Source: an uncultured Bacteroidota bacterium (lineage in GTDB: Bacteria > Bacteroidota > Bacteroidia > Bacteroidales > WCHB1-69). Taken from it: DNA of 64,000 nt. The notes under the pieces are model-generated. The model made no database searches and was not told the DNA's origin. It saw only the letters and a list, made by a program, of their open reading frames with translations. Of the stretch, positions 13,532 through 52,288 are shown in pieces; position 1 is the stretch's first letter; each line of letters begins with the position of its first letter. Position numbers and translations under genes: made by a program. The stretch covers positions 158,011 through 222,010 of the forward strand of contig CADADB010000002.1 of the NCBI GenBank assembly GCA_902786595.1, in the 5' to 3' direction.

Positions 13532-13554
13532 CCATCGTTATTATGATTACCGAT

Positions 13555-26315: not shown

Positions 26316-26353
26316 ATCACTGTCTTACAATTGTCAAATCAGGTTTTTCGGTC

Positions 26354-26383
26354 TGTAGAGACGTTTCCTGAAACGTCTCTACA
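26354..26383. repeat. GTAGAGACG palindromic element, T-subtype (H4)
   Basis: TGTAGAGACGTTTCCTGAAACGTCTCTACA, between the sigma-gene stop and the parE start. Confidence 0.9.
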
Positions 26384-26450
26384 ACGACGTTTCAGGCGCG
26401 TCCATACAAAGGTTACATAATGGTTTTGCCGCATTCTTGAAAATGCGGCG

Positions 26451-26458
26451 CAAAAGTA
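26451..26458 (-). promoter_or_regulatory. -7 box TACTTTTG (minus strand), parE
   Basis: CAAAAGTA on the plus strand. Confidence 0.5.
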
Positions 26459-26488
26459 CAAAAAATTCGGTTGCTCGCGGCGTGACAA

Positions 26489-27637
26489 TCACTGCTCACC
26501 GATAACCTGATACACCGTGTCCGACACGATGGTGGTGTCGCGGATCACGACGGTCCGGCGGACGGGCACCTTTTGGGTGATGATGACGGGGTCGGGATTC
26601 GTTGTTTCTTCCGTTTTCGCTAATGCGGCGGGTGGTGTCCCGACAACGCTGGCGGGTGACGTTTCGGCGTCGGTCCGTAGGGGCGAATAATTATTCGCCC
26701 CTACAACGGAATTTGTTCCTACAACGGATTTCGTCCCTACAACAGAATCTGTCGCCACAACGCGTTCCGTCAATGTATTCGTGTTAGGAGATGCAACCGT
26801 ATCAGGAGACATTGCGCGCACCGTCTCTACCATCGGGGACGGATTATTGGCCGGGTTTGGGGCGACGGGGTGGTGACGGCCCGCCTGCCAACCGACGGCG
26901 CCGCCCGTGATGCCCGCAGCCGTGACGAGGAGGAGGGTGGCCTTGTGCGCCGCGATAGCGGTGACGAATTTGCCCGGGGAGGTGGCCGCCGTTTGGACGA
27001 TTCCGGCGGCGGAATCCATTCGCAATCCCGACAATTTGGAACGGTACAACCGGTCCAACCGGCGGGAATCGGCGTTGGTTCGTTTCAGGATAAAAAGCAG
27101 GGGTATCATAAGCAATCCTTTCCTCTTGTTCTCTTTTTGTTTGTATTTGTCTGTGAGCATTTGGCCCAGACGCACGCGGGCCCGGTGGTGCAACTGCTTG
27201 GAGTAGGCCACCGAGATGTCGAGCAGTCCCGCGATGCGCCGGTGCGAGTATCCTTCGATGGCGTAGAGGTTGAAGACCGTCCGTTGCTGTTCCGGCAGCT
27301 GCTGGACGGTTTCCAACAGCTCCTTCTCTGTGAAGTCGGCGGTCCAAATCGGTTCGGTGTCTTCGTCTGGGCGTTCGGCGGCGGGTTCCGACTCCAAGGC
27401 GATGAAATCGGGCTTTTGTCGCAGGTAGTCGATGCAGTGGTTCACGGCGATGCGGGTCAGCCAGGCATCGAAGCGGCCGAAGGCGCGGTAGGCCTTGAAG
27501 GTTTCCATTGCCTTCAGGAACACGTCCTGCGCCAGATCCTGCGCCACCGTCCAGTCGTTGACATAGCGGTAGCAGATCCCGACAATCCTGCCGTGCCCCC
27601 TCCGGTACTGCTTCTCCCAAAATTTCGCCTTGTCCAT
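26489..27637 (-). CDS. ECF-type sigma-70 factor fused to a transmembrane segment and a low-complexity extracytoplasmic tail
   Basis: Probable start MDKAKFW at 27637. Region 2: DLAQDVFLKAMETF...DAWLTRIAVNHCIDYLRQ. Region 4: LPEQQRTVFNLYAIEGYSHRRIAGLLDISVAYSKQLHHRAR. About 200 further residues follow with one hydrophobic helix (ATLLLVTAAGITGGAVGW). Confidence 0.8.
   Translation of the reverse strand: MDKAKFWEKQYRRGHGRIVGICYRYVNDWTVAQDLAQDVFLKAMETFKAYRAFGRFDAWLTRIAVNHCIDYLRQKPDFIALESEPAAERPDEDTEPIWTADFTEKELLETVQQLPEQQRTVFNLYAIEGYSHRRIAGLLDISVAYSKQLHHRARVRLGQMLTDKYKQKENKRKGLLMIPLLFILKRTNADSRRLDRLYRSKLSGLRMDSAAGIVQTAATSPGKFVTAIAAHKATLLLVTAAGITGGAVGWQAGRHHPVAPNPANNPSPMVETVRAMSPDTVASPNTNTLTERVVATDSVVGTKSVVGTNSVVGANNYSPLRTDAETSPASVVGTPPAALAKTEETTNPDPVIITQKVPVRRTVVIRDTTIVSDTVYQVIGEQ
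26677..26704. repeat. GTAGGGG-type perfect palindrome inside the sigma-tail CDS
   Basis: GTAGGGGCGAATAATTATTCGCCCCTAC, 14 of 14 paired. Encodes VGANNYSPL. Confidence 0.9.
26701..26772. repeat. Four tandem 18-bp units inside the sigma-tail CDS
   Basis: ctacaacggaatttgttc / ctacaacggatttcgtcc / ctacaacagaatctgtcg / ccacaacgcgttccgtca. Encodes a (T/D)xSVVG hexapeptide repeat. Confidence 0.85.
26803..26830. repeat. Decayed GTAGAGACG element inside the sigma-tail CDS
   Basis: caGGAGACattgcgcgcacCGTCTCTAC. The right arm is intact and the left arm is decayed. Encodes VETVRAMSP. Confidence 0.6.
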
Positions 27638-27666
27638 TCGATACTGTTGCCGACTGCCTGCCCACC

Positions 27667-27734
27667 ACTCACTAATCACTGATCACTAATCACTAATATC
27701 ATAACGTGAAAAAGTGAAAAGGTGACAGCCGGGG
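27667..27734 (-). promoter_or_regulatory. Conserved leader element, copy A (upstream of the sigma gene; lacks the -7 box)
   Basis: Minus-strand reading: CCCCGGCTGTCACCTTTTCACTTTTTCACGTTATGATATTAGTGATTAGTGATCAGTGATTAGTGAG. Confidence 0.75.
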
Positions 27735-27763
27735 TGATATTTTTTGCGGTGAAATTACAAAAA

Positions 27764-28453
27764 TCAGAATTTCAAACGGTACCCCACATTCAAGATTCCT
27801 TGCGTGCCGTACCCCAATTCGATGTTCCCGTTGTTACGCTTGCCGAGGGAGACACCGAGCAGTGTGAGATGTCCGGAAGGAAAAATCACCAAATCGCCTT
27901 TCCAGTGTTCGTCCATAAAATACAAAGTAAACCCTAAAGAACAACCTGAATATAAGGTACAAACAGGGTATCTTTTAAAAGTGATTCGATAGGAAGTTTG
28001 CAATGCCCAAAACGCATTCAACGAATTATAGGGCTGATTCTCTCGTTTTAGAGTCTTAATCAACGGAGAATAGGGCTCTTGATAAGGGTTGTCGGTGGGC
28101 AGCGTGGTGATATGGCGGAATGCCAATGTGGATTGTATCCCGACGGCGTGAAACCGGGTCATGTTGTAGTAATAATTAAACGTGAAAGACCCTATCAGCC
28201 AGCTGTCTATGGTATCTCCTATATCCGTCTTGTAGTGTTCGTGATGGCTGAACCACTTTTCGTCGCTACGTGCACGATCCCACATTCCAATCACAGGATA
28301 AATTCCCATCGAAAAACCAATCTCATGTTTAGGCACATCAGACAACCCATCTGATGTGTTTTGTGCAGTACAAGTGACGGATACAAACAGAAACATGCAC
28401 AAAAACAAGAGTGAATACATTCCTAACAGGTCTTTTTTCATAATATGCAGCAT
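27764..28453 (-). CDS. Small outer-membrane beta-barrel-like protein (paralog of the 28454..29302 C-terminal domain)
   Basis: Signal peptide. Shares KHEI..S.G..P.IG and NIELG.GTQG.L..GY..KF with the upstream gene and has a C-terminal Phe. Its ATG abuts the upstream stop; Met5 at 28441 is an alternative start. Confidence 0.7.
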   Translation of the reverse strand: MLHIMKKDLLGMYSLLFLCMFLFVSVTCTAQNTSDGLSDVPKHEIGFSMGIYPVIGMWDRARSDEKWFSHHEHYKTDIGDTIDSWLIGSFTFNYYYNMTRFHAVGIQSTLAFRHITTLPTDNPYQEPYSPLIKTLKRENQPYNSLNAFWALQTSYRITFKRYPVCTLYSGCSLGFTLYFMDEHWKGDLVIFPSGHLTLLGVSLGKRNNGNIELGYGTQGILNVGYRLKF

Positions 28454-29302
28454 TTAGAATTTGTAACTGTAACCGATCTTCAACATCCCTTGTGTCCCTA
28501 ACCCAAGTTCTATGTTGGCAGCATTATGATTGCCTATACGTATTCCAAGATAATTGATGTTGAAATCGAAACGCCAATCGTGGCAGTTTTTTAATGGGTA
28601 AACGTTGGGGACTTCTGGCAAATGATTGATGCCATCCTCATAATAGGCTGCATCACCGATAAGATATAATGTGGCTCCAAAAGAAACCGAAGAATACAGG
28701 GATATTTTTTCTGTGTTAAAAAAATGTATGCTGTAGCCTGCTTGGAAACAGAGGTAGTGAACATAATCGTTTCTGTATGCCCAATGTCTCACATATATAG
28801 TCGGTGCCGTATGCTTCATCGCCGCCCAAGTAAGGTTGAAGTCCACACTGTGCAACTTGTTGAAATAAAGGTGGTATTGTAGATTGACACCTCCGAAGAA
28901 GAGCTCTTTTAAAGAACTATAGTCTTCAAAAGACACATTTTCAAAACTCCCTCGGTAAAAAGTGCCGATATAAGGGGCTAAACCGTACGAGACCTCGATC
29001 TCATGCTTGAGATCCAGACCGTTTTGACGTGCATGGTGGACAGGGCTTTGGCGGTACTCGTCCATGGCCAGCGCGACAGTGTCGTGCACTCGGAGCGTGT
29101 CGTGCACGAAGAGGGTGTCATAGACAGGCTCTTCCTCCACCACGTACAGGGTGTCGCGGTGCTGGGCGGAGAGGGGAGAGGCGAGGGCGAGGAGGACGAC
29201 GAGGGACAGACACGCACGTATTGCGCTGCGCGCATACTGTGCTACCGAGCTCTTGTCCCTCCGGGACTGCTTAAGGAAGTAGTTTCTTATATACATAGCC
29301 AT
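28454..29302 (-). CDS. Beta-barrel-like protein with a shared N-terminal module (MAMYIRN...QHRDTLYVVEEEPVYDTLFVHDTLRVHDT)
   Basis: 282 aa. Long signal/anchor region and a C-terminus ending GYSYKF. Confidence 0.7.
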   Translation of the reverse strand: MAMYIRNYFLKQSRRDKSSVAQYARSAIRACLSLVVLLALASPLSAQHRDTLYVVEEEPVYDTLFVHDTLRVHDTVALAMDEYRQSPVHHARQNGLDLKHEIEVSYGLAPYIGTFYRGSFENVSFEDYSSLKELFFGGVNLQYHLYFNKLHSVDFNLTWAAMKHTAPTIYVRHWAYRNDYVHYLCFQAGYSIHFFNTEKISLYSSVSFGATLYLIGDAAYYEDGINHLPEVPNVYPLKNCHDWRFDFNINYLGIRIGNHNAANIELGLGTQGMLKIGYSYKF

Positions 29303-29317
29303 ATCGGTTTAGCGCTA

Positions 29318-29393
29318 TTCACTGCTCACTGTTCACTGTTCACTAATATCATAACGTGAAAAAGCGAAAAGGTGACAGTCGGGGGCAAAAATA
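29318..29393 (-). promoter_or_regulatory. Conserved promoter plus leader element, copy B
   Basis: -7 box TATTTTTG (plus-strand 29386-29393), then CCCCCGACTGTCACCTTTTCGCTTTTTCACGTTATGATATTAGTGAACAGTGAACAGTGAGCAGTGAA on the minus strand. Confidence 0.75.
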
Positions 29394-29398
29394 AAATC

Positions 29399-30259
29399 TT
29401 ATTTAATCATACAGAATCTGACGGCGAAATTCAGCGAAATGTCATATCCGTGATAAGGATATTCCGTCGGCATACCCGTATAGCAAATCAACCATAACGG
29501 ATTGTTGTCCAAACTGGTACGTGGCGGTTTGGCATTTGCCGATTTCAGAAGGGAACAATAACCTGCCCTGAGGTCTATTTGAAAAGAGAGTTTAGGTTTT
29601 TTCAAGACAAACTCCACCCCAAACAAAGGATATACCCCAAGTTTCCAAAGCGTTGGTCGGAGTATTGAAACGCCTCCCGACAAGCCAGCTCCGACCATAT
29701 AATAGTAAAGCACCCCGTTTTTCTCAGCAATTTGACGTTGATATAAAAAGTTTTGAGAAAGTTCATATACGTACAGTATAAAACTATTCTCCGGAGAATA
29801 GTTGTTAATGAAAAATCTGCCTGAAAAATCGGTTTGGAAAACACAATTCTTGGAAATGCCGTATTTGATGGAAGGCCCGCCTCCGAGCACGTTAACATTC
29901 AAACCTGCACTAAACTTGTAAAATCCAGTACTATCCGTCTGCATCGGGACCAACGTGTCGTGCACTCGGAGCGTGTCGTGCACGAAGAGGGTGTCATAGA
30001 CCGGCTCTTCCTCCACCACATACAGGGTGTCGCGGTGCTGGGCGAAGAGGGGAGAGGCGAGGGCGAGGAGGACGACGATGACGAGGGACAGACACACACG
30101 TATTGCGCTGCGCGTACCGGTATCGCTGTCTCCGCAGTCCGAACCTGTCTCCAGCATCAAGCCCCACACTGCGCTGCGCTTGTGTGGGGTTAATTGCGCT
30201 TCGCGCGTGTTGCCTCTCCGAGGCTGCTTAAGGAAGTGGTTTCTAATATACATAGCCAT
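29399..30259 (-). CDS. Small beta-rich envelope protein carrying the same N-terminal module but a different C-terminal domain
   Basis: 286 aa. The N-terminal ~75 aa are near-identical to 28454..29302 apart from a ~25-aa insertion. The C-terminal domain is unrelated and ends RFCMIK. Confidence 0.65.
   Translation of the reverse strand: MAMYIRNHFLKQPRRGNTREAQLTPHKRSAVWGLMLETGSDCGDSDTGTRSAIRVCLSLVIVVLLALASPLFAQHRDTLYVVEEEPVYDTLFVHDTLRVHDTLVPMQTDSTGFYKFSAGLNVNVLGGGPSIKYGISKNCVFQTDFSGRFFINNYSPENSFILYVYELSQNFLYQRQIAEKNGVLYYYMVGAGLSGGVSILRPTLWKLGVYPLFGVEFVLKKPKLSFQIDLRAGYCSLLKSANAKPPRTSLDNNPLWLICYTGMPTEYPYHGYDISLNFAVRFCMIK
30162..30189. repeat. Hairpin inside the paralog-specific insertion
   Basis: CCCCACAC-tgcgctgcgctt-GTGTGGGG. 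Encodes TPHKRSAVWG in the n-region. Confidence 0.7.
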
Positions 30260-30267
30260 ATCGGTTT

Positions 30268-30350
30268 ATCACTGATCACTATTCACTATTTACTGCTCAC
30301 TATATTCATAACGTGAAAAAGTGAAAAGGTGACAGCCGGGGGCAAAAATA
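30268..30350 (-). promoter_or_regulatory. Conserved promoter plus leader element, copy C
   Basis: -7 box TATTTTTG (30343-30350), then CCCCCGGCTGTCACCTTTTCACTTTTTCACGTTATGAATATAGTGAGCAGTAAATAGTGAATAGTGATCAGTGAT. Confidence 0.75.
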
Positions 30351-30465
30351 CAAAAAAATGTTACAACTCATTCTTCCACAGCGCATCTTATTTCTCTAAA
30401 TTCATCAGACAATGGTTGTTTTTAGATAAATAAAACATCTTATCCGTCTGAAAAAGAAAAAAATA

Positions 30466-30473
30466 TATCTTTG
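30466..30473 (+). promoter_or_regulatory. -7 box TATCTTTG
   Basis: 28 nt upstream of the ATG at 30502. Confidence 0.55.
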
Positions 30474-30501
30474 CAGCAAAATAAAACCAACGATTATAGT
30501 T

Positions 30502-31932
30502 ATGAACATTGTAGGAAGAACCCAGGAAATAGAAGAGCTTGAGCGATTGTATAATGCTGACAATTCGGAATTTGTAGCCGTTTATGGTCGCCGGCGTGTC
30601 GGAAAAACCTATTTAATCAAGGAAGTTTTCAAAGACAGGTTTGCTTTTTGGCACACAGGATTATCACCTTACGACCGAGACAAGAAATTCCTGCTTCGTG
30701 ACCAATTGCAAACTTTTTTCTATTCATTGCAAGATTATGGATTGCGAGGCGAACCATGTCCAAAATCATGGCTTGAGGCATTCCGCCTTTTGGAGAAATT
30801 GCTTGAGCAAAAGGATAATGGTGAAAAATTGGTGGTTTTCATAGACGAAATGCCGTGGATGGACACGGCGCGGTCACGATTTATACCGGCTTTTGAACAT
30901 TTTTGGAATGGTTGGGCGGCGAAACGTGACAACATCTTATTGATTGTCTGTGGTTCGGCTACATCGTGGATAGAGGACAATATCCTTAACAGCAAAGGTG
31001 GTTTGTACAACAGGTTGCATCGGGAAATCAAACTTCGCCCTTTCACGTTGGCAGAAAGCGAAGAGTATTTCCGCAGCAAAGGGATAGCAATGAGTCGTTA
31101 TGATGTAGCCCAAACATATATGGTGTTGGGCGGCATTCCTCATTATTTGAGTCTTTTCGAGAAAGGTTTCAGCGCGGCGCAGAATATCGACCGCCTTTTC
31201 TTTGAAAAAAAGGCGATGTTGGAAGACGAATTTGACCGTCTTTTCGGATCCTTGTTCAAGAATGCGGATGACCATAAGAAAATTGTCAGATTTCTTTCAC
31301 GGCGAAGAGGCGGTTACACCAGAAAAGAAATTCTCGAACATACGGGCATTCAGGATGGTGGTGGTGCTTCTGAAATGCTCAAGGGATTGGAGGCGAGCGA
31401 TTTTGTCACCTCATACTATCCTTTTGGAGAACGAAAAACAGAACGGTACAGACTTTCGGACCCGTTTTGTCTCTTTTGGCTTCAATTTGTAGATGGTACG
31501 GGGTCTCGGGATGTGCAGTTTTGGCAGAAAAATGCAATCTCTCCACAGTTGAATGTTTGGCGTGGACTCGCCTTCGAAGAGCTGTGTTTCTCACATATTG
31601 CCCAAATCAAACGAAAATTAGGCATCGCTGGGGTCTGTTCCTCTGAGTCTTCTTGGTTGGTGGTTAATGTTGATAAAAAGCAGCAGCTGGATATGCTTAT
31701 CGACCGAGCCGATAACGTTGTAAATCTTTGTGAAATAAAGTTTTATGGAAAACCTTTCGTTATAGACAAATCTTACGACATTATTCTTCGCGAGCGCGTT
31801 CAGACGCTGATGGATGTTGTGCCACACAAGAAGAGCATTCATCTGACTATGATAGTGGCATCCGGACTGAAACAGAACGAATATAGCGGGCAAGTGCAGA
31901 ACGTGGTCACTCTTGACGATCTGTTCGTGTGA
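30502..31932 (+). CDS. AAA ATPase (archaeal-ATPase/DUF234-type) with a PD-(D/E)xK-like C-terminus
   Basis: Walker A GRRRVGKT, Walker B LVVFIDEMPW, and C-terminal D...NLCEIKF. Confidence 0.8.
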   Translation: MNIVGRTQEIEELERLYNADNSEFVAVYGRRRVGKTYLIKEVFKDRFAFWHTGLSPYDRDKKFLLRDQLQTFFYSLQDYGLRGEPCPKSWLEAFRLLEKLLEQKDNGEKLVVFIDEMPWMDTARSRFIPAFEHFWNGWAAKRDNILLIVCGSATSWIEDNILNSKGGLYNRLHREIKLRPFTLAESEEYFRSKGIAMSRYDVAQTYMVLGGIPHYLSLFEKGFSAAQNIDRLFFEKKAMLEDEFDRLFGSLFKNADDHKKIVRFLSRRRGGYTRKEILEHTGIQDGGGASEMLKGLEASDFVTSYYPFGERKTERYRLSDPFCLFWLQFVDGTGSRDVQFWQKNAISPQLNVWRGLAFEELCFSHIAQIKRKLGIAGVCSSESSWLVVNVDKKQQLDMLIDRADNVVNLCEIKFYGKPFVIDKSYDIILRERVQTLMDVVPHKKSIHLTMIVASGLKQNEYSGQVQNVVTLDDLFV

Positions 31933-31948
31933 ATCACAACATCGGGTT

Positions 31949-32023
31949 GTCACTGTTCACTGCTCACTGTTCACTATATTCGTAACGTGAAAAAGTGAAA
32001 AGGTGACAGTCGGGGCAAAAATA
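31949..32023 (-). promoter_or_regulatory. Conserved promoter plus leader element, copy D (orphan)
   Basis: -7 box TATTTTTG (32016-32023), then CCCCGACTGTCACCTTTTCACTTTTTCACGTTACGAATATAGTGAACAGTGAGCAGTGAACAGTGAC. No cognate gene follows. It points into the 3' end of the ATPase gene. Confidence 0.7.
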
Positions 32024-32063
32024 AAAAAAATCGGACAAACAATATTGCATTCGAAAAATATTG

Positions 32064-32071
32064 TAATTTTG
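32064..32071 (+). promoter_or_regulatory. -7 box TAATTTTG
   Basis: 25 nt upstream of the ATG at 32097. Confidence 0.55.
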
Positions 32072-32096
32072 CAGTGGATTTCGAATAAACATAGAT

Positions 32097-33365
32097 ATGC
32101 AAGCATACGTAAAAAGAGACACCTATCTTAATCGGTTGATTGTCAGGAGAAACAACAACATGGTTAAAGCTATAACAGGACCGCGGCGTGCAGGAAAATC
32201 CTTCCTGCTGAATCCTATTTTTAAAGATTATCTATTGGAGCAAGGGGTTCAGGAAGACCACATCATCAGCATTTCTTTTGACATTGAGGATGAAGATACT
32301 CCTCGTGAACTGCTGGACAGGGAGAAGCTAAAAGAATATCTGTATTCACGAATCATCTCAAAAACAGAACCTTACTATGTGTTTTTAGATGAGATTCAGG
32401 AAGTTGAGAATTTTGAGAAGATTGTCAACGGACTGAACAATCGTCCAAATGTGGACGTGTATATCACGGGCAGCAATTCGAAATTCCTCTCCAATGACAT
32501 CATCACGATTTTCAGAGGTCGCAGCGACGAGGTGAACATCATGCCTTTCACATTTAAGGAATTTTGTCAGGACCGGCAAGAGTCAGTCGGTGAATTATGG
32601 AAGGAGTATTACACCTTCGGAGGACTTCCTGCACTCAGGATGATGCCGACATACGAACAGAAAACCTCGTATCTGCAAAGGCTCTGGAAGAAGACCTATC
32701 TCGACGATGTGGTAGAACGGCATCACGTGGAAAACCGAGAGGCACTTGAGGCGATTACCGATGCATTGTGTTCCTCCGTCGGATCGCTGACAAACACTTC
32801 ACGAATCACCAACACATTGGCGAGTGTGAGGAAAATTAAAATCTCAGACGATACGGTTTCCAAATATATCGGATATTTGGAAGAGGCGTTCTTGTTCAAC
32901 GAAGCCAAAAGATACAACATCAAAGGGAATAAGTATTACGAAAACATTAAAAAATACTATTCGGTTGATGTTGGGCTAAGGAATGTCCGTTTGAATTACA
33001 GACAACTGGAGCAGACCCACCTGATGGAAAATATTATCTTCAATGAGCTTTTACATCGGGGTTACGTTGTTGATGTCGGGGTGATCGAAGCTCGAGTGAT
33101 GAAAAATGGGAAATCAGAATACAAACAGTATGAGGTGGATTTTATTGCAACCAACGGGAACGAAAAGTATTACATCCAGTCGGCATACGAGTTGTCCTCC
33201 GATACTAAACGCGAGCAGGAACTTAACTCTCTGAAACGAATTGACGATTCTTTCCAGAAGATTGTCATTGTCAAAGACGATATTATGCCTTATCGAGATG
33301 AAAAAGGCATTTACTTTATTGGATTGTTTCAGTTCCTGATGAGTGACAAGATAGTGGCAATCTAA
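32097..33365 (+). CDS. AAA ATPase (AAA_14 plus DUF4143-type)
   Basis: Walker A GPRRAGKS and Walker B YYVFLDEIQ. The C-terminal EVDFIA...YYIQSAY resembles the DUF4143 nuclease-like core, but with Q/A where E/K are usual. Confidence 0.8.
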   Translation: MQAYVKRDTYLNRLIVRRNNNMVKAITGPRRAGKSFLLNPIFKDYLLEQGVQEDHIISISFDIEDEDTPRELLDREKLKEYLYSRIISKTEPYYVFLDEIQEVENFEKIVNGLNNRPNVDVYITGSNSKFLSNDIITIFRGRSDEVNIMPFTFKEFCQDRQESVGELWKEYYTFGGLPALRMMPTYEQKTSYLQRLWKKTYLDDVVERHHVENREALEAITDALCSSVGSLTNTSRITNTLASVRKIKISDDTVSKYIGYLEEAFLFNEAKRYNIKGNKYYENIKKYYSVDVGLRNVRLNYRQLEQTHLMENIIFNELLHRGYVVDVGVIEARVMKNGKSEYKQYEVDFIATNGNEKYYIQSAYELSSDTKREQELNSLKRIDDSFQKIVIVKDDIMPYRDEKGIYFIGLFQFLMSDKIVAI

Positions 33366-33396
33366 AGATTTCTGTAAAAATACGATTAATTCGCAA

Positions 33397-34617
33397 TCAC
33401 CACTCCACCTCCTTGATTTCCCCCTCGGGACTGCGAAACACAAAGCGTTTCGTTACTCCTTGGCGCTCCAGCAACATATACGTACACATATCCGGGATGG
33501 GAGTGCCGTCAACGCTGATGAGGTAATCACCGTTGCGGAGGCCCTTCTCGTAGGCTTTCGTCCCTTTGCGCACAATCGCCTTCACCGTCCCGAGGGTGTC
33601 GCCCTCCTCGGCAGGAACAAGATTGAGGCCTCTTCCCCTGTTCGCCACGGTGATTTCCGGGTTCCCGTCGTGGGGCAGAAAGTAGAAACTTTTCTTCGGC
33701 GCGTCGATAATCAGCGAGACGTGTTCCAACAAGGCCGAACCGACGGCCCTGTTGTGCGTGGCGGTCGAGACCCACACCTCCTTGAGGACGATGTCGCCGA
33801 TCTCAATCTCAGGGAAACAGAGTTCTCCACCAATAACCGTATCGTAGGAGGCGCCGAAAAGACCGGCGTAGGTCATCACGGTCGTATCCACATTCACCGT
33901 CATCGAATCCAATTGCCGATTGATGTTTGGGTTGTCCTTCGCCCACAGATCCAGCAAATCCTGCGGGAGGCCGAACCAACCGCCGACAGCGCCCATATCG
34001 AAAAGCATTCTCGGGTGGGCAAAGGGAATTTTTGTCCACAGGAAGGGTACGTTGCCATAAACTTTGTAGGGCACCTTGGCGTGTCCTTTCTCCTCTTTGG
34101 CGAAAAAGCCCTTGCGGGAGGTCATGATCAGCAGACTGTCACGGGTGTCGAATTTGAACGAGATGCCTTTGGAGACGAGGTCGAAGCCGAAAGCGCCGTC
34201 AATGATGCCGCAGGTGAAATTACTGAGCCCTTCGTCCACCACCACCGGATAGCCCTTGATGGTGAGATGTCCCATTTTAAGGGAAGGAATCTTCATCATC
34301 GCTTTCTTTTTCGTTCTGTTTTGGGCGTCACGGGTGGTGATACTGGCGCCCATCGGTTGCATCCACGGCTCTTCTTCTCCTATCCAGAACCCTGTCCCGG
34401 CACCCGTGTCGAACATCAGGTTCTTGGTTTCCCCCTCGATTTCCACGGGCACAATGATGGCCCCCTCCCACATCTTTATCTTGATGGTATCGACAAAATC
34501 CTGTTCGGAGATGCCGAAATAGCGGTCGCTCAACCGCTGGGCTGGTGCTTGCCAAAGCACCGCAAACAGCAGCAAAACGGCCGTCGTGATGATTTTTATC
34601 GGATTATTCATTCGCAT
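33397..34617 (-). CDS. Secreted retropepsin-like aspartyl protease with a C-terminal PDZ domain
   Basis: Signal peptide, MFDTGAGTG (DTG motif), a second pseudo-repeat FDMGAVGG, and a PDZ-like GLRNGDYLISVDG. Confidence 0.7.
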   Translation of the reverse strand: MRMNNPIKIITTAVLLLFAVLWQAPAQRLSDRYFGISEQDFVDTIKIKMWEGAIIVPVEIEGETKNLMFDTGAGTGFWIGEEEPWMQPMGASITTRDAQNRTKKKAMMKIPSLKMGHLTIKGYPVVVDEGLSNFTCGIIDGAFGFDLVSKGISFKFDTRDSLLIMTSRKGFFAKEEKGHAKVPYKVYGNVPFLWTKIPFAHPRMLFDMGAVGGWFGLPQDLLDLWAKDNPNINRQLDSMTVNVDTTVMTYAGLFGASYDTVIGGELCFPEIEIGDIVLKEVWVSTATHNRAVGSALLEHVSLIIDAPKKSFYFLPHDGNPEITVANRGRGLNLVPAEEGDTLGTVKAIVRKGTKAYEKGLRNGDYLISVDGTPIPDMCTYMLLERQGVTKRFVFRSPEGEIKEVEW

Positions 34618-34658
34618 CTTTTCGGTTTTTAGTCACTTTCCGTGACGATTTGAGGCCG

Positions 34659-34666
34659 CAAAGATA
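34659..34666 (-). promoter_or_regulatory. -7 box TATCTTTG (minus strand)
   Basis: CAAAGATA on the plus strand, 41 nt upstream of the ATG at 34617. Confidence 0.55.
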
Positions 34667-34765
34667 CACTTTTAGACTTTTGGAACCACCGTCCGAATGT
34701 TAAAGCTATAAAGGTCATACTTTCGCTCTAACTAAAATTCGCATAATTCGTAAAATTCGCCGAAA

Positions 34766-35317
34766 CTAGCGCCACTCCGCGAAGCACGAGAAGCCATACC
34801 AAGTTTCAATGTTGCCCTCTGGCAGGAAGAAATAGAGCGTTTTCAAATCCGCCGGCATCATCCCTTTCTTGACGCTGAAGTAGTTTTCGGGTGTCTGATT
34901 GGGATCATATTCTATCCTCCCCAACCTGCCGAGCATCTGCTCTGCCACGCGGTCGGTGCGCCATTCACAGTAGGTGCGGGCCTGCGCTGGCGAGACTCCA
35001 AACACGGGAGAATACCTGTATGCAGGGTGATTCGCATAGACTTCAGCAAGACTGTCGGGGAGCAGTTGCCGGAGTGCCTGCTTGTCGGGGAGCGCCGCTT
35101 GGTACTCGGCCGACTCCTTCCCGTAGATTTGCTCCAGCCAGTAGAGGTACTCCATCCAATCGACGTTGGAGATTGGATTCTGGTCGCGATAAAGCTCCAT
35201 TGTGATGGCTGTCAGGCCGGGGTGTACTTTCTTCTGGTAATTCTTGACGGTGAGGTGCTGTGCGGAGACACCGGTGGCGCAGAGCCATAACAACACGCAG
35301 AGGAGTTTGCATTTCAT
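34766..35317 (-). CDS. Short SUMF1/FGE-like domain protein (secreted)
   Basis: Signal peptide. NHPAYRYSPVFGVSPAQARTYCEWRTDR resembles the HP..V(S)W..A..YC.W core of the family. Weak assignment. Confidence 0.5.
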   Translation of the reverse strand: MKCKLLCVLLWLCATGVSAQHLTVKNYQKKVHPGLTAITMELYRDQNPISNVDWMEYLYWLEQIYGKESAEYQAALPDKQALRQLLPDSLAEVYANHPAYRYSPVFGVSPAQARTYCEWRTDRVAEQMLGRLGRIEYDPNQTPENYFSVKKGMMPADLKTLYFFLPEGNIETWYGFSCFAEWR

Positions 35318-35406
35318 AATCTTACATTTTGGGTGGGTTCTTTATTATATAAACGTAAGATTTGGGGAGAATCTTGGGTGAAATGTGAGATTTTTTTTGT
35401 TGTTCG

Positions 35407-35414
35407 GGGGGGGG
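35407..35414. repeat. G8 homopolymer
   Basis: cGGGGGGGGt in the divergent intergenic region. Confidence 0.95.
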
Positions 35415-35459
35415 TATAATATATTGAATATCAATAAAATACGGGTTGATATTTGGGGT

Positions 35460-35489
35460 TGTAGAGACGCGCCATGGCACGTCTCTACA
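35460..35489. repeat. GTAGAGACG palindromic element, C-subtype (H5)
   Basis: TGTAGAGACGCGCCATGGCACGTCTCTACA. Confidence 0.9.
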
Positions 35490-35535
35490 TCGCCCTGTTA
35501 CCGTTTCACCGCAAACGCCGTAAATGAAATAAATG

Positions 35536-35543
35536 TATCTTTG
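35536..35543 (+). promoter_or_regulatory. -7 box TATCTTTG
   Basis: Upstream of the ATG at 35613. Confidence 0.5.
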
Positions 35544-35612
35544 CGGTCGTTTACCTAATTGTGGCCCTTTTATGTTTTTTTGCGTCTTAATAAAAAGTGA
35601 ACGTTATTTATT

Positions 35613-36887
35613 ATGAATATGAAAAATATACGACTGACAACCATTTTTCTTACACTTTTACTGTCATATGGACACGTTTGTATGTCCCAGCAGTTAGACA
35701 AGCATATTTTGAAGACTCAGCGGGATATTGACTTGTTTTTTGAAAAATATGATGAGATTTATGATGTGTATCATGACTTTTACAAAGATAAACAGTTCGA
35801 TAAGGCGATTCTCCATCTAAAAGAACTTGTCACATTCTTTGACACAACTGCTATTGACAGTCAGTGGGTGGATGCTAGGATCTACAAGGAAGAAATGACA
35901 GCCGATGTATATTATAATCTTGCATGCTGCTACGCATTGACGGCACAAAAGAAACTGGCATTGGAAACACTGGAAAAATCCATACGCGTAGGTTACAAGG
36001 ATTATCGTAATATGCTTAACGACAGCGATTTTGAGAGTATCAGAGAAGACAAGAAATTCAAATCCTTACTTGAAGAGATTAAGCAATATGACCGATTGAC
36101 GATTTTGCAAAATTCGTCTGCCTATATCAAAGATGACAACGATTCGCTGCCGCAATTTGTTTATCAGGATTCTGGAGACTATCGTTTGTTGAATGTCAGA
36201 AAGTTTTTTGATCTGGACTCCGTTGCCGGTGACGGTGATGAGATTTCCAAGATCCTGAATATCCTTCATTTCGTTCATAAAGTTATCCGGCACGATGGGG
36301 GCAATTTTGCGCTGTGTGAATTTGATGCTATCGATATCTACAATTATCACAAATCAACAGGAAAAGGTGTCAATTGCCGTCATCTGGCCATTGCTTTGAA
36401 TGAGATGTATCTTTCGATGGGCATACCGTCGCGATATGTGACCTGTATGCCATACGACGAGAAAGATCAGGATTGCCACGTCATCAATTCGGTTTGGTCG
36501 TCACAATATCAGAAATGGATTTGGATAGACCCCACTTTCGAAGCATACGTGAAAGACGAAAATGGTAATTTCTTGAGCATCCTGGAAGTGCGGGAGAGAC
36601 TAATTGACGGTCGGCCTCTTTTCTTGAACGAGGATGCCAACTGGAATTATGAGAACAAGCAGACAAAAGAGTATTATCTGGAGGGCTATATGGCCAAAAA
36701 CCTATATTGGTTTGATTGCGTGACAAATTATTGTTTTAATCCGGAGAGCAGATATAGGTATGTGAAGAATAAGCACGTGGTTTTAACACCGTCAACATAC
36801 AAAACGCCATCAACATACGAAAATTCCAGCGATTGGGCCGTTATCACCCACGATGCCGATTATTTTTGGCAAACTCCGACAAAATAA
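35613..36887 (+). CDS. Secreted TPR plus transglutaminase-like cysteine peptidase-fold protein
   Basis: Signal peptide and an N-terminal TPR-like helix region. Candidate triad context: GVNCRHLA (Cys), DCHVINSVW (His), WIWIDPT (Asp). Confidence 0.7.
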   Translation: MNMKNIRLTTIFLTLLLSYGHVCMSQQLDKHILKTQRDIDLFFEKYDEIYDVYHDFYKDKQFDKAILHLKELVTFFDTTAIDSQWVDARIYKEEMTADVYYNLACCYALTAQKKLALETLEKSIRVGYKDYRNMLNDSDFESIREDKKFKSLLEEIKQYDRLTILQNSSAYIKDDNDSLPQFVYQDSGDYRLLNVRKFFDLDSVAGDGDEISKILNILHFVHKVIRHDGGNFALCEFDAIDIYNYHKSTGKGVNCRHLAIALNEMYLSMGIPSRYVTCMPYDEKDQDCHVINSVWSSQYQKWIWIDPTFEAYVKDENGNFLSILEVRERLIDGRPLFLNEDANWNYENKQTKEYYLEGYMAKNLYWFDCVTNYCFNPESRYRYVKNKHVVLTPSTYKTPSTYENSSDWAVITHDADYFWQTPTK

Positions 36888-36902
36888 ACGATATGTAACG
36901 GT

Positions 36903-36930
36903 GTGGGGGCGAGGATAATCATTCTCCCTA
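36903..36930. repeat. Possible degenerate GTAGGGG-type element
   Basis: GTGGGGGCGAGGATAATCATTCTCCCTA. Resembles the copies at 13909 and 26677, with indels. Confidence 0.4.
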
Positions 36931-36956
36931 AAATGCAATTATACCATTTTCGATCC

Positions 36957-36984
36957 GTAGAGACGCGCCATGGCACGTCTCTAC
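36957..36984. repeat. GTAGAGACG palindromic element, C-subtype (H6)
   Basis: GTAGAGACGCGCCATGGCACGTCTCTAC. The core is identical to H5. Confidence 0.9.
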
Positions 36985-37027
36985 ATTACCCCCGCCTCCG
37001 TGCTTATGCGCACGAAGTACAGTCGGA

Positions 37028-37711
37028 TCAAAACTGAAACGAGTACACAAAATAGAACGTGGAGTTGTAGTATTTCTTGAGGATTCCGGTGGTGACTTCT
37101 TGTTCAGGGATGCCAACCGGGATGAGGGAATGGCTGAAGCGGAGTGACAGGCCGTGGTGACGTTTGAAGACGTAGGAAAGGCCCGCAAGAAAAGAAAACT
37201 CAAACCGATTGAGGCCATAATAGTCGTCCCACACATCGCTCCAACTCGAAGTGCCAGCAGGAGTGCCAACATGGTGTCGTTGTACAGTCCTCTGATACAA
37301 CAGAAAGCCGATTGTGGGGCCGAAATCAAGCCATACTCCATCATTGTCAGTTTTAATGCTATTAAAGCGAAATCGTAATAGAAGCGGAAATTCTATGTAG
37401 CCTAAAGACGTTGAATGCTTGTCTTTACGTGCTAATCCTTTAACACCGAAATTAGGTTTGGAGCGGGTGCCTTTCATTGTAAAGTTCATATCCAGCTGCA
37501 ACAACATTCGTACATTGTAGTTGTCAACAAGTTTCACATTGCCGAATAATCCAGCTGTTATTCCTGTTTTCCAATATCCAGGAATATTATCCGCAGACAT
37601 CGCTGAAAATGTATTGCCGAATACAACACCTCCGCCGAAATAGGACTTTTGGGAGAAGCCTTGCAGAAAGCACAGGCTCAACGCAAAAATCAAAATCAGT
37701 CGGTTTCTCAT
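37028..37711 (-). CDS. Outer-membrane beta-barrel (porin-family/OMP_b-brl-like) protein
   Basis: Signal peptide, alternating beta-strand pattern, C-terminus ending YSFQF. Confidence 0.75.
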   Translation of the reverse strand: MRNRLILIFALSLCFLQGFSQKSYFGGGVVFGNTFSAMSADNIPGYWKTGITAGLFGNVKLVDNYNVRMLLQLDMNFTMKGTRSKPNFGVKGLARKDKHSTSLGYIEFPLLLRFRFNSIKTDNDGVWLDFGPTIGFLLYQRTVQRHHVGTPAGTSSWSDVWDDYYGLNRFEFSFLAGLSYVFKRHHGLSLRFSHSLIPVGIPEQEVTTGILKKYYNSTFYFVYSFQF

Positions 37712-37799
37712 TGTTTTTTTATTGGATTGTTAACGTGGGAAAAGGGAATGTAGCTTGGATATGGATGTGTGCGGTGTGGCGGTAGATATGTTCTTCCGA

Positions 37800-38120
37800 T
37801 TACCAAAGGGCAACGCGGCCGAGACGACCGAGGTCGAGTGTGGCGGTCTCTGCGCCGAGAGCTTTGAAAGCCCGCATGATGGTGCTGTAGGTGATGCTTC
37901 GCCCGCTCTCAATCTTGGATACTTCCGCCCGTTTCACCCCCATACGCTCTCCCAGCTGCTGCTGCGTGAATCCGATTTTCTTCCGAGTCTGTTTGATGGC
38001 CTCTCCAATGCGATATTCCTCCACTCCTGCTCGCACTTGCGCGTCAAAAGCGTCTCTTTCAGGAGTGCCGACCTCGCCAATGTATTTGACGAGCATTTCT
38101 TTGTGTGTCTTAATCTCCAT
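37800..38120 (-). CDS. XRE-family HTH antitoxin (HigA-like)
   Basis: HTH core FTQQQLGERMGVKRAEVSKIESG. The start MEIKTHKEM at 38120 overlaps the toxin stop by 11 nt. The tracked ORF extends to 38207. Confidence 0.75.
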   Translation of the reverse strand: MEIKTHKEMLVKYIGEVGTPERDAFDAQVRAGVEEYRIGEAIKQTRKKIGFTQQQLGERMGVKRAEVSKIESGRSITYSTIMRAFKALGAETATLDLGRLGRVALW

Positions 38121-38454
38121 TTTCTTCTCGTGTTTTATAATAGTTGTCTCTAATACTTTCTGCATGTTCAATCTCTTGCTTTGGCGTTTTTCGGGTCTTT
38201 TTGTCAAATCCGTGCGTTGCCACTACAATCGAAGACCGTGTTTTGTCCCAAAACGAAAGCAATCTGTACTCGTTGCTCTCATATTCGGCCCGGAACTCCC
38301 ATATCCTTGATTCGCCCAATTTCTTGAAAATCCGGGAATCTACGACTCCCATACTCACCAAGGAGATATTGTAGAATAGTTTTTTCCTTGCCTTATCCGG
38401 CATAGCATCTATATATGACCGAGCTTCTTCGAGATATTCAACATCAATGTTCAT
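38110..38454 (-). CDS. RelE/ParE-superfamily toxin (Gp49/HigB-like)
   Basis: IWEFRAEYESNEYRLLSFWD...IVVATHGFDKKTRKTPKQEI is typical of Gp49-like toxins. Probable start MNIDVEYL. Confidence 0.75.
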   Translation of the reverse strand: MNIDVEYLEEARSYIDAMPDKARKKLFYNISLVSMGVVDSRIFKKLGESRIWEFRAEYESNEYRLLSFWDKTRSSIVVATHGFDKKTRKTPKQEIEHAESIRDNYYKTREENGD

Positions 38455-38475
38455 CGCCTTGTTTTTTTCAAAACG

Positions 38476-38483
38476 CAAAAATA
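38476..38483 (-). promoter_or_regulatory. -7 box TATTTTTG (minus strand), toxin-antitoxin operon
   Basis: CAAAAATA on the plus strand, 21 nt upstream of the ATG at 38454. Confidence 0.55.
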
Positions 38484-38891
38484 CAAAAAATGTTACAATA
38501 TTGGAAACAAAAAAAAGAGTAGGTTAGCGACAAAAAGTTATCTTCACATATCGCTCGTATCTTCACGTATTATTTCATTGTTATCTACTATTCTTAACTG
38601 TTTCACCTTTGCGCTCCCCACTTCCGTATTCACATGCACGACATACATCCTTGCTGGGTGGTGGCGGACTGAGATTTCGGTGCGGCAGAAGGTGCACTCT
38701 CTTGGGCAAAATCTTCCCAAAAATCCAAGTGATTCACCCGAGGCGTGTTCGCTAACGACTTCTCGCATTTTTTACAAGTTGCATCTTTATCGCAAAAATT
38801 GCATCTTTTCAATTGAATAATGTCATTTTTATAATATTGATTATCAATGAATTAAAAGTATTTTGCTCTTGTTTTGTTTGCTTTAATTTTG

Positions 38892-38899
38892 TAACTTTG
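38892..38899 (+). promoter_or_regulatory. -7 box TAACTTTG
   Basis: 19 nt upstream of the ATG at 38919. Confidence 0.5.
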
Positions 38900-38918
38900 C
38901 GGGCAAACAATATCAAAG

Positions 38919-39018
38919 ATGAAAGAGAATATTCTACCCTCCGACAACCCCATTCAAGACATCATCTATGACATCAGAGGTGCCAAAGCTATGCTGGACT
39001 ATGACTTAGCAGCTATTT
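38919..39018 (+). pseudogene. 5' fragment of an ORF6N/KilA-N-like gene
   Basis: IQDIIYDIRGAKAMLDYDLAAI matches the ORF6N N-terminal motif (I..IRG..VMLD.DLA..Y). Similarity ends where the convergent lipoprotein gene begins. Confidence 0.55.
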
Positions 39019-39492
39019 CTAATATGCAGCGTAATCGAGAACAATGTTGCGTTCACGTAATTCTCCATCAAACAGTTCCAGTGGTTCCATCCAACCATAT
39101 CCATCACCTCCGGATAAACTACGACGCAAGAGGGTATCACCATCCACCAATGCAATGGAATATTTCCCCGCAGGAATCTCTAATTGGTAAATACCTTTAT
39201 TGTTGGTGGATGTGCGAGCGATTTCGTGTATATTGAGATCAGAAATAGCTACCCTGTCCATCCAATATATCCAATATCCTTGCAAATCATGGATATTGAT
39301 AGAGTCGAAAACAGCTACTTCACATTCTATCGGATATTCCTGTGCGGAAGGATCATTCGCCCCTGGCATCCAATTTCCTACTCTTTTCGTGACTTTTCCA
39401 TATACACCGCATTTTATGGTAACCTTATTACAAGAAGCACATAAAACAATCAAAAGACTGGCTATTACAGCCACTATGCCAATTTTTTTCAT
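39019..39492 (-). CDS. Hypothetical lipoprotein (beta-sandwich-like)
   Basis: Lipobox LVLCASC. 157 aa. Starts 7 nt after the ileS stop. Confidence 0.65.
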   Translation of the reverse strand: MKKIGIVAVIASLLIVLCASCNKVTIKCGVYGKVTKRVGNWMPGANDPSAQEYPIECEVAVFDSINIHDLQGYWIYWMDRVAISDLNIHEIARTSTNNKGIYQLEIPAGKYSIALVDGDTLLRRSLSGGDGYGWMEPLELFDGELRERNIVLDYAAY

Positions 39493-39499
39493 AATTCAT

Positions 39500-42400: not shown

Positions 42401-42871
42401 TTCGATGTACTTGTTGTCGAAGGTGATGTAGGGGTGTTCGAGATCGACCCAGTAGCCCATCTCGCGGGTGAGGTCATCCCATTTGTCCTTGAATTTCATC
42501 ACCTCGCGGCGGCAGGCCTTGTTGTAGTCCTCCACGGAGATTTTCTTGCCGATGTCCTCCTTGGTGATGCCGAGGGTTTTCTCCACGCCAAGCTCCACGG
42601 GCAGACCGTGCGTGTCCCAGCCGCCCTTACGTCCGACGTACTTACCGGTGAGGGTCTGGTAGCGGCAGACAATGTCCTTGATGGTGCGGGCCATCACGTG
42701 GTGGATGCCGGGCATACCGTTGGCGGACGGCGGTCCCTCAAAGAAAACGAACCGTTCGTGTCCCTCGCGGGTCGATAGACTCTTGGCGAAGATGTCATTG
42801 TCTTCCCAATATTTTCTCATTTCCTCCCCAAGGGCAGGGAGATTAAGACCTTTGTATTCAGTATATTTCAT
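39500..42871 (-). CDS. ileS: Isoleucine--tRNA ligase (type 2)
   Basis: PPSANGMPGIHH (HIGH-like) and KMSKRLGN (KMSKS). Probable start MKYTEYKGL at 42871, 29 nt after a -7 box. The tracked ORF runs to 42958. Confidence 0.97.
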   Translation of the reverse strand: MKYTEYKGLNLPALGEEMRKYWEDNDIFAKSLSTREGHERFVFFEGPPSANGMPGIHHVMARTIKDIVCRYQTLTGKYVGRKGGWDTHGLPVELGVEKTLGITKEDIGKKISVEDYNKACRREVMKFKDKWDDLTREMGYWVDLEHPYITFDNKYIETVWYLLSELYKKGLLYKGYSIQPYSPAAGTGLSSHELNLPGCYRDVKDLTCVALFKLVNGNDNLSINANDPMPTYAIAWTTTPWTLPSNTALCVGPNIDYVLLKTVHPYTEQPCYILMAKALVSTMFKEAPEVVKEFKGKDLVGISYEQLIPWVNPGEGAFRIIPGDYVTTEDGTGIVHIAPTFGADDKRVAAAAGIPPLVMIDKDGIRQPMVDRTGKFYRIEDLDPEFVQNCMDVEAYRPYAGQFVKNAYDPTKTEKDKSLDVDIVVMLKEQGKLFKSEKHTHNYPHCWRTDKPVLYYPLDSWFIKTTAYKERMMELNKTIKWKPAATGSGRFGNWLENLVDWNLSRSRFWGVPLPIWTTEDKKEQICIGSIEQLMAEIDKSIAAGFMTENPYKNFKVNDMSQENYDNNIDLHKPYVDSIVLVSPTGQKMYRESDLIDVWFDSGSMPYSQLHYPFENKEFFKTNFPADFIAEGVDQTRGWFFTLHAIATMLFDSVAFKSVISNGLVLDKNGNKMSKRLGNAVDPFEIIHKYGPDATRWYMITNASPWDNLKFDEAGIGEVQRKFFGTLFNTYNFFALYANIDGFTYKEAEIPFAKRPEIDRWILSELNTLVKHCQENYIDYEPTKVGREIQDFTDAYLSNWYVRLCRRRFWKGEYSEDKISAYQTLYTCLETIAKIASPIAPFFMDKLYQDLNRVTGKEAFESVHLADYPEVHEELIDKELEERMQLAQQFSSMVLALRKKTNLKVRQPLSKIMIPVMDEHFKQQISLVQDLILHEVNVKELVFVSNEDGVFVKRIKPDFKKLGPKYGKIMKLVAAKITGFSQQEIAQLEKEGVMRFEIEGQPVEITTDDVEIQAQDIPGWVVANFGALTVALDIEVTEELKNEGYAREFVKLVQTYRKENNFEVLDKIAVTVENNEVITPALKAFESHICNETLCTSLTIAATVSDGVEMDLEDVKIRVKIEKQ

Positions 42872-42899
42872 CGAAGTATAGATTTTTCCAAAAAACTGG

Positions 42900-42907
42900 C
42901 AAAGATA
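42900..42907 (-). promoter_or_regulatory. -7 box TATCTTTG (minus strand), ileS
   Basis: CAAAGATA on the plus strand. Confidence 0.6.
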
Positions 42908-42969
42908 CAATTTTTTTGGGATTAGTGAGTAGTGAACAGTGATCGGTTCGGGGGCCATTATATGAGAAT

Positions 42970-52246: not shown

Positions 52247-52260
52247 CGATTTTTTAGAAT

Positions 52261-52288
52261 GTAGAGACGCACCATGGCACGTCTCTAC
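52261..52288. repeat. GTAGAGACG palindromic element, C-subtype (H9)
   Basis: GTAGAGACGCACCATGGCACGTCTCTAC. Its right arm supplies the TAG stop of the 1099-aa ORF. Confidence 0.9.

Follow-up and report, generated by a model that had tools for sequence, protein, structure and literature searches.

The cellular role of repetitive extragenic palindromes (REPs) and of the domesticated REP-associated tyrosine transposases (RAYTs) is still debated. In RAYT subclass 2.4 (RAYT group 4), which is abundant in Bacteroidetes and Cyanobacteria, the REPs have two feet, GT[AG]G and, at the opposite end, its complement, and REP insertions that keep the reading frame lie within the transposase gene itself, between HuH and Y (PMC6006769). 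REPs are also recombination hot spots and join-points of duplications, according to the passage of PMC11708052 that cites Shyamala et al. 1990. The locus considered here, in a 64-kb stretch of contig CADADB010000002.1 from an uncultured Bacteroidales bacterium (positions 158,011 to 222,010; hereafter the window, numbered from its first nucleotide), holds a transglutaminase-like gene between two identical palindromes, H5 and H6. An earlier inspection of the letters alone (the original prediction) had suggested that the gene was acquired, or can be exchanged, as a unit bounded by these hairpins, in the manner of attC- or REP-bounded cassettes. Comparison with related loci makes a different explanation probable, in which a REP/RAYT pair of subclass 2.4 provides recombination joints and the gene is an island accessory, a bystander to the exchange around it.

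A family of double-foot REPs and its transposase

What kind of repeat are H5 and H6? The 28-mer GTAGAGACGCGCCATGGCACGTCTCTAC is present at both positions with 0 mismatches and in the same orientation; the common stretch is 30 nt, the 28-nt core plus AT, and the two direct repeats are 1496 bp apart. A third REP of this C subtype, with 1 mismatch to GTAGAGACGCGCCATGGCACGTCTCTAC, is found about 15 kb away at 52261-52288 (+). Shuffled versions of the window contained 0 matches to the GTAGAGACGCGCCATGGCACGTCTCTAC palindrome, and both H5 and H6 are predicted to form stable single-stranded DNA hairpins (-9 to -13 kcal/mol, z -3.8 to -5.9). A scan of the window for GTAG...CTAC palindromes found at least 10 clean copies, each of 28 nt, about one per 5-6 kb (Table 1), so that the 64 kb hold a short palindrome in many copies, as is typical of REPs. 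Every copy starts with GTAG, the conserved 5' GT[AG]G of REPs, and ends with CTAC, and H5, H6 and nearly all of the others are extragenic, lying in spacers between long open reading frames (ORFs). The copies have 9-bp feet in common, GTAGAGACG or GTAGGGGCG plus complement, and the subtypes are distinguished solely by the central 10 nt, itself palindromic. Related loci were anchored on the transglutaminase-like gene in species-representative genomes and on ileS in metagenomes, and when pooled they contain 71 distinct copies of about 20 central-sequence subtypes. A longer repeat unit around the REP was rejected, because outside the 28 nt conservation is restricted to a T at -1 (61 of 71 copies) and an A at +1 (59 of 71), which gives the double-foot formula T-GTAGAGACG-N10-CGTCTCTAC-A.

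The transposase that would recognize these palindromes is encoded next door in relatives. Exactly at the H5 site, loci L007, L015, L048, L060 and L131-134 carry a 180-aa RAYT (TnpA_REP) ORF, the homology of relatives to the window breaks at 35455-35459, and at least four contigs from other rumen samples show the order hyp183, RAYT ORF, transglutaminase-like gene. The L015 protein (7313-7855) has REP_Tyr_transpos as its only NCBIfam match (E 8.7e-18) and Y1_Tnp (PF01797) as its only Pfam match; the best match in the PDB is E. coli TnpA_REP (4ER8), at a score near or below the curated cut-off, with the HuH and Tyr motifs aligned. Its motifs, PNHIHLVV (NHIH), AWQPRF (WQ) and DYIENNV (YIENN), are those of subclass 2.4, the last residue of the Tyr motif being V rather than the P of YIxNNP. 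C-subtype REPs bracket the gene in L007, L015, L048 and L131-138, as expected of a cognate RAYT, and an inner REP (L015:7593-7620) lies in frame between HuH and Tyr, where it encodes CRDVPWRVST; this combination of an in-frame inner REP with double feet is the one described for subclass 2.4, and the inner copy is kept in homologues down to about 55% identity. The homologues number more than 1200, some of them named 'REP element-mobilizing transposase RayT' by JGI, and a paralogue that is 62-65% identical (L011, L066) has its own subtype, GCGGCGCGCCGC, both within and around the gene. These features of transposase and palindromes agree with the published subclass 2.4, and therefore the hairpins are REPs: judged by sequence, H5 and H6 are double-foot REPs and the predicted cognate DNA of a subclass 2.4 RAYT.

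Several observations on the family stand beside this assignment. Among the RAYT homologues P0121-P0238 there are one to several tandem, partly decayed inner copies (P0130, P0141); in P0197 the inner REP is of another subtype and in another frame (VETGRAPSLH), and in P0238 it has been lost. In L011 the 3' end of ileS (window 39508-39641) is doubled, at 9341-9476 and 11491-11654, and the two copies enclose an insert of about 2 kb that holds the RAYT paralogue with its own REP subtype. Some family members in the window lie within mechanically called long ORFs: 26677-26704 is inside an extracytoplasmic function (ECF) sigma ORF (26489-27637) whose sigma domains span the first 157 aa only, and 13477-13502 and 13909-13936 are at the 5' end of ORF 13438-17007. 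Such copies reflect either overlong ORF calls or in-frame intragenic REPs. Some REPs are centred in longer perfect palindromes, with 15-16 nt of the left flank reverse-complemented at the right (L055:9872-9929, 58 nt; L131:~798-858 and likewise L132-L134); this is not general, and it looks like the scar of a template switch or an inverted exchange.

The sole long ORF between H5 and H6 (35613-36887, +) encodes a 424-aa protein with a Pfam Transglut_core match (E 2.4e-9), a signal-peptide-like N-terminus and a weak TPR-like N-terminal region. Its homologues at E<=1e-10 number 4033, and many rumen Bacteroidales metagenome-assembled genomes (MAGs) encode orthologues that are 82-99% identical, with RUG083 and RUG312 among those that hold its closest relatives; the window sequence itself is identical to a rumen metagenome contig. 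The GC content of the gene is 39.8%, against 48.2% in the window, 56% in ileS and about 55% in the core genes flanking the region, and a Bacteroidetes-type -7 box, TAtcTTTG, is found at 35536-35543, between H5 and the ATG. In its descriptive part the original prediction is borne out: the palindromes are identical and alike in orientation, a single AT-rich gene with its own -7 box is enclosed, and a degenerate GTAGGGG-type element does stand beside H6. That element derives by decay from a B-type REP of the GTAGGGGCGAATAATTATTCGCCCCTAC family, whose intact orthologue in relatives lies between the stop of the gene and the stop of ileS; it no longer folds, and a recurrent homology break (36893-36900, 13 endpoints) is found near it.

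REP-to-REP joints in a variable island

The H5-H6 region is variable, and its variation is organized by the REPs. Between L007 and L131-134 on one side and the window on the other, the H5 site shows a REP-to-REP indel of 747 bp that holds the RAYT gene, and in L060 the C-terminal half of the RAYT has been lost through a 268-bp deletion that runs exactly from the inner REP to the downstream REP. In L057 the left flank of H5 (the hyp183 side) is followed by a single REP and then by the right flank of H6, the side of the outer membrane protein (OMP) gene; the 1496-bp unit is absent to the base, and the transglutaminase-like gene instead adjoins ileS, without its hairpin-side flanks. The reciprocal joint is present in L008, where the left flank of H6 is followed by a REP, the right flank of H5 and 62 nt of the gene promoter, and then by unrelated DNA; this is the joint that a tandem duplication, and equally a circle, would have. 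From the L057 and L008 joints it follows that the REP pair behaves as a unit of deletion and duplication. L131 adds a third joint, in which the left flank of H6 and its REP are connected to the right flank of the A-subtype REP site at 26355 (window 26386+), 10 kb away.

To the right of H6, relatives have at least five different sequences, each beginning at the 3' edge of the REP: the OMP module, a DUF1016/YhcG gene (L016, L010, L130), segment 'a' (L008), window 26386+ (L131) and window 38816+ (L055); seven homology endpoints fall at 36985-36992. In RUG083 (L016:9386-10600) the 3' edge of H6 is exactly where a gene for a 404-aa DUF1016/YhcG PDDEXK nuclease has inserted, with no second REP at the far end of the insert; the junction of REP and DUF1016/YhcG gene is the same in L130, and the right flank in L010 is similar. 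Not only the neighbours of a REP but its subtype can change while its place stays the same. At the 26355 site four different central sequences occur between identical flanks (window, L010:2139, L016:187, L043:1310 and L012 at about 4290), namely TTTCCTGAAA, TGCCATGGCG and TTTCATGAAA plus a GTGG-footed variant, and the palindrome is always intact; L010 and L016 carry a C-subtype REP at this orthologue of the window's A-subtype site. Likewise, after the same left flank, the H6 site has a B-type REP in L015 and a C-type REP in the window. REP subtypes thus seem to be replaced or converted in place.

Does the gene travel with its hairpins? At 21 loci, the window included, both sides of the gene could be scored for a C-type REP: six have one on each side and nine on neither, while three have only the upstream copy and three only the downstream one; homologues of 48-65% identity in other Bacteroidota have no C-type REP. 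In the commonest arrangement the gene adjoins ileS directly or across a B-type REP (L015, L047, L057, L058, L060, L062, L063, L065, L067). What relatives conserve is a block from 35516 or 35568 to 36893-36899, from promoter to stop and not from hairpin to hairpin, and their homology starts at 35515-35527 or 35568 regardless of the DNA upstream. Wherever a locus has an upstream REP, segment 'a' directly follows it, whether the left neighbour is hyp183 or RAYT; loci that lack this REP lack segment 'a' too. In protein identity to the window the gene tracks ileS (rho 0.67, p 0.001). No 28-nt filled and empty insertion sites for H5 or H6 were found among the relatives, and because the REP-less loci differ in the whole flank, no target-site rule can be derived. 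An exact-protein look-up of the flanking genes returned the same few assemblies only, all with one arrangement and no strain polymorphism.

These results bear unevenly on the cassette that the original prediction had proposed. It had named a gene standing without flanking hairpins in relatives as the finding that would tell against it, and this is the situation at 9 of the 21 loci, among orthologues of 82-99% amino acid identity; with 6 of 21 loci having a hairpin on one side only and a conserved block that runs from promoter to stop, acquisition as a hairpin-bounded unit is not supported. The expectation that the segment would be present or absent precisely at the hairpins fared better, in the empty site of L057 and the reciprocal joint of L008; 'REP-bounded' is accordingly apt for deletion and duplication at the REP pair but not for acquisition of the gene. 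The likeness to attC falls away, since no integrase was found, the hairpins are 28-nt perfect palindromes of a REP family spread over the genome, and the gene is served by a promoter of its own. The 14 window ORFs scanned from 24.5 to 45.9 kb, ileS and some small ones excepted, gave no recombinase or integrase domain. Circular or excised forms, which had been suggested as a check on sequencing data, were sought as well and no circular contig was found. A 1523-bp Logan contig that runs from hairpin to hairpin is not a circle, a k=31 unitig break being expected at a shared 30-mer, and the contigs L129 and L130, of about 1.5 kb, are linear pieces whose flanks are ordinary. In public short-read assemblies the contigs end exactly at the REPs (Logan unitig L002 is 35461-36983; also L004 and L006), and this is why many contigs of about 1.5 kb carry the gene and nothing else; such contigs might be taken for small circular elements.

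The surroundings are an accessory island. In L059 and L073 the gyrB/parE-like gene directly adjoins ileS (window 26316 joined to 39500), so the 13-kb region between them is accessory in the clade, and other relatives have differing subsets and orders of its modules, a mosaic. In the window it encodes an ECF sigma factor, AAA/DUF4143 ATPases, a PDZ/aspartyl-protease-like protein, hyp183, the transglutaminase-like protein, an OMP beta-barrel, a Gp49/HTH toxin-antitoxin pair and an ORF6N remnant. The Gp49 (HigB-like)/HTH pair (37800-38478) adjoins the OMP gene; L057 and L007 have lost part of the toxin gene, and the antitoxin is 98-100% conserved. The remnant (38919-39018) is the N-terminal part of an ORF6N-domain gene and ends where a 157-aa gene beside ileS starts. 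The ORF6N gene is intact (208 aa) in L012, immediately upstream of the transglutaminase-like gene, and ORF6N-homologous sequence is also found upstream of that gene in L011, L057 and L077.

Table 1. Positions in the window of the REP family and of the features around the transglutaminase-like gene
Feature	Position	Strand	Basis or remark
Clean family copies	2239, 13909, 26355, 26677, 35461, 36957, 50046, 52261, 56959, 61003		palindrome scan
Variant family copies	13477, 36903		palindrome scan
Variable island between gyrB/parE-like gene (24480-26315) and ileS (39500-42958), ~13 kb	26316..39499		relatives, domain scans
A-subtype REP, left edge of variable island	26355..26382	+	palindrome scan, relatives
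H5, C-subtype double-foot REP (by sequence)	35461..35488; 35460-35489 as 30-nt palindrome with T/A flanks	+	sequence, folding, relatives
Segment 'a', 27 nt, ATCGCCCTGTyACCGTTTCACCGCAAACGCC	35489..35515	+	always after REP at right end of RAYT module
Conserved promoter/leader of transglutaminase-like gene	35516..35612	+	homology among relatives
Decayed B-subtype REP, GTAGGGGCGAATAATTATTCGCCCCTAC family	36903..36930	+	alignment with relatives
H6, C-subtype double-foot REP (by sequence), between convergent transglutaminase-like and OMP genes	36957..36984	+	sequence, folding, relatives

Joints, cassette ends or transcript hairpins

What might explain why one gene stands between two REPs of the same subtype? 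In the lineage of the window, a RAYT module like that of the relatives has collapsed REP to REP, leaving one REP and 27 nt, which are H5 and segment 'a'; H5 is the right-end REP of the collapsed module. H6 stands at a REP site of long standing, in the spacer that separates the gene from ileS, and relatives have a B-type REP there. A neighbouring C-type source of RAYT and REP may renew or convert REP copies locally, and given the switching of subtypes in place, the match between H5 and H6 would be due to such local renewal or conversion. As identical, hairpin-forming direct repeats of 28-30 bp, the copies could then serve as joints for REP-by-REP recombination, made either by short-homology or RecA-type exchange or by RAYT-assisted cleavage and rejoining. 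Exchange of this kind would delete, duplicate and reshuffle modules, removing the unit in L057 and duplicating it in L008. On this probable reading, H5 and H6 are recombination joints in a very variable region and not integron-style cassette ends. The gene, an accessory of the 13-kb island inherited largely together with ileS whether or not REPs flank it, is accordingly a bystander between REPs rather than a mobile cassette in its own right; what moves or varies is the REPs and the modules next to them, and not specifically the transglutaminase-like gene.

Several points weigh against this explanation. No RAYT was found within the 64-kb window; a tblastn match to it at 52257-52478 was judged spurious (27.8% identity, E 0.007), as it is seeded at the third C-type hairpin. 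The RAYT of the relatives scores below the curated cut-offs, with 64.6 against 80 bits for NCBIfam NF047646 and 20.4 against 23 for Pfam PF01797, probably because of the in-frame REP insert. Each recombinant joint is known from one metagenome or MAG contig and may be a chimera formed at the 30-nt repeat, although misassembly there is unlikely given the larger k-mers commonly used. Part of the coincidence of breakpoints with REPs is to be expected, because both are confined to short intergenic spacers. L057, finally, is compatible either with deletion of the gene unit or with a move of the OMP module, and the mosaic haplotypes are too many for the events to be put in order.

If those joints were assembly artefacts, H5 and H6 could be a coincidence, two repeats of an abundant family in the spacers around one gene. 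The chance that two C-types are neighbours is about 0.49, with 3 C-type copies among 11 intact elements, and short-read assemblies do break exactly at these repeats, as the unitig that coincides with the unit and the many contigs of about 1.5 kb attest. Yet there are three different hybrid joints, from independent assemblies, exact to the base and with flanks conserved on both sides, and the RAYT REP-to-REP indels recur in many samples; as a matter of general reasoning, a repeat of 28-30 nt is also shorter than the larger assembly k-mers in common use. Coincidence is thus highly improbable. A role in RNA, with the hairpins selected as terminators or 3' mRNA stabilizers that insulate or tune the gene, is very unlikely too. 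H6 lies 70 nt past the stop codon between convergent genes, a position typical of REPs proposed to act on transcripts (PMC3733652), and the hairpins are stable; H5, however, is upstream of the -7 box of the gene and of the start of the divergent gene, and since it precedes both divergent promoters it is probably in neither transcript. A terminator scan found no terminator-like site at H5 or H6, and no family copy is followed by a T-tract; intrinsic terminators were rejected on that ground and on the position of H5 upstream of the promoter. In an Rfam scan of the window only two tRNAs were found and no RNA family covers the hairpins. Hairpin presence also varies among relatives of 95-99% identity, and subtypes switch in situ.

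A true mobile cassette would be another use of the same joints: the RAYT would excise the gene between the direct REPs as a circular single strand, as in IS200/IS605, and reinsert it by a REP. Both predicted products are present in relatives, the resealed donor in L057 and the circle or tandem joint in L008, the cognate RAYT is next door in relatives, and other island modules likewise start immediately 3' of a REP. Ordinary unequal recombination between direct repeats would, however, give these two joints as well, as its reciprocal products, and no copy of the gene with REP, 'a' and 'b' as flanks was found at an unrelated locus; L057 has it in the common position beside ileS, without those flanks. 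One or both C-type REPs are missing in 15 of the 21 loci, no circular contig was found and no transposase is encoded between the hairpins, all of which leaves a cassette quite unlikely. A broader version, in which double-foot REPs are the working joints of RAYT-driven module shuffling, with excision of circles and their rejoining at other REPs in an exchange like that of integron cassettes and with subtype conversion as a by-product, is also doubtful, if a little less so; its modules could be any that two REPs of one subtype enclose, among them the transglutaminase unit, the OMP/toxin-antitoxin module, an 8-kb sigma/ATPase module and the RAYT gene.

The value of the locus, with REPs as recombination joints, is that it forms a compact natural series: one REP pair is found intact, collapsed, doubled and recombined with a third REP 10 kb off, and the same series adds alleles with the RAYT present, absent or truncated and subtype switches at fixed sites. 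With confirmation from long reads, it would be direct comparative evidence that double-foot REPs structure variation in gene content in a gut/rumen Bacteroidales island, and it would provide a defined set of substrates for asking whether RAYT or general recombination makes the joints. In practical terms, it accounts for the breakage into contigs of about 1.5 kb at this gene in short-read assemblies of the clade.

Comparison with known systems

The arrangement is reminiscent of integron cassettes, in that a single gene stands between palindromic repeats and both an excision-type empty site and a circle-type joint exist. Unlike in integrons, no IntI or attI was found here (ORFs scanned at 24.5-45.9 kb). 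attC sites are 57-141 bp long, with an R''-L''...L'-R' layout, extrahelical bases and variable sequence, and their cassettes are usually promoterless, whereas the palindromes here are 28 nt, near-perfect to perfect and members of a genome-wide family, and the gene has a conserved promoter inside the unit. There is a likeness also to IS200/IS605 'peel-and-paste' transposition, which has subterminal hairpins and an HUH-Y1 enzyme, TnpA_IS200, to which the RAYT is related, and two hairpins could in principle bound an excisable single strand. The differences are that no transposase lies between the hairpins, that the two ends are identical and not distinct left and right ends, and that copy number and distribution are REP-like.

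With the GTAG REPs, BIMEs and REPINs of Enterobacteria and Pseudomonas (Nunvar 2010, PMC2817692; Di Nocera 2013, PMC3733652; Bertels & Rainey, PMC3337134) the family has in common the GTAG-tagged palindromes and a placement after genes or between convergent ones. As in those classical REPs, there are several classes per genome, each tied to a RAYT, and there is turnover from strain to strain. Classical REPs have one foot and form inverted doublets (REPINs/BIMEs), whereas H5 and H6 are single symmetrical palindromes with two feet, and the REPIN architecture of an inverted REP pair with a short spacer is absent from them. REP-mediated duplication and rearrangement, known from Shyamala, Schneider & Ames 1990 (as cited in PMC11708052) and from the REP-cluster hot spots of P. 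fluorescens SBW25, resembles the present case in its join-points of one hybrid REP, and here one REP pair is seen with both a deletion joint and a duplication joint. The known cases are large, laboratory-selected duplications in Proteobacteria, whereas these are natural module polymorphisms of 0.3-10 kb in a Bacteroidales island.

The closest likeness is to subclass 2.4, or RAYT group 4 (Quentin et al. 2018, PMC6006769; Bertels et al. 2017, PMC5581495), with its dense, intergenic 28-30-nt palindromes with GTAG/CTAC feet, its HUH-Y1 protein of about 180 aa with NHIH, WQ and YIxNN motifs, the same REP flanking the gene and in frame within it, and its Bacteroidetes host. The locus differs from the published group in that the RAYT is missing from the window itself and that the Tyr motif of the relatives ends in V, not P. 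We know of no description of this uncultured rumen Bacteroidales lineage and its specific REP subtypes. The locus adds to REP/RAYT subclass 2.4 an example from uncultured rumen Bacteroidales, and its set of REP-by-REP recombinants is informative.

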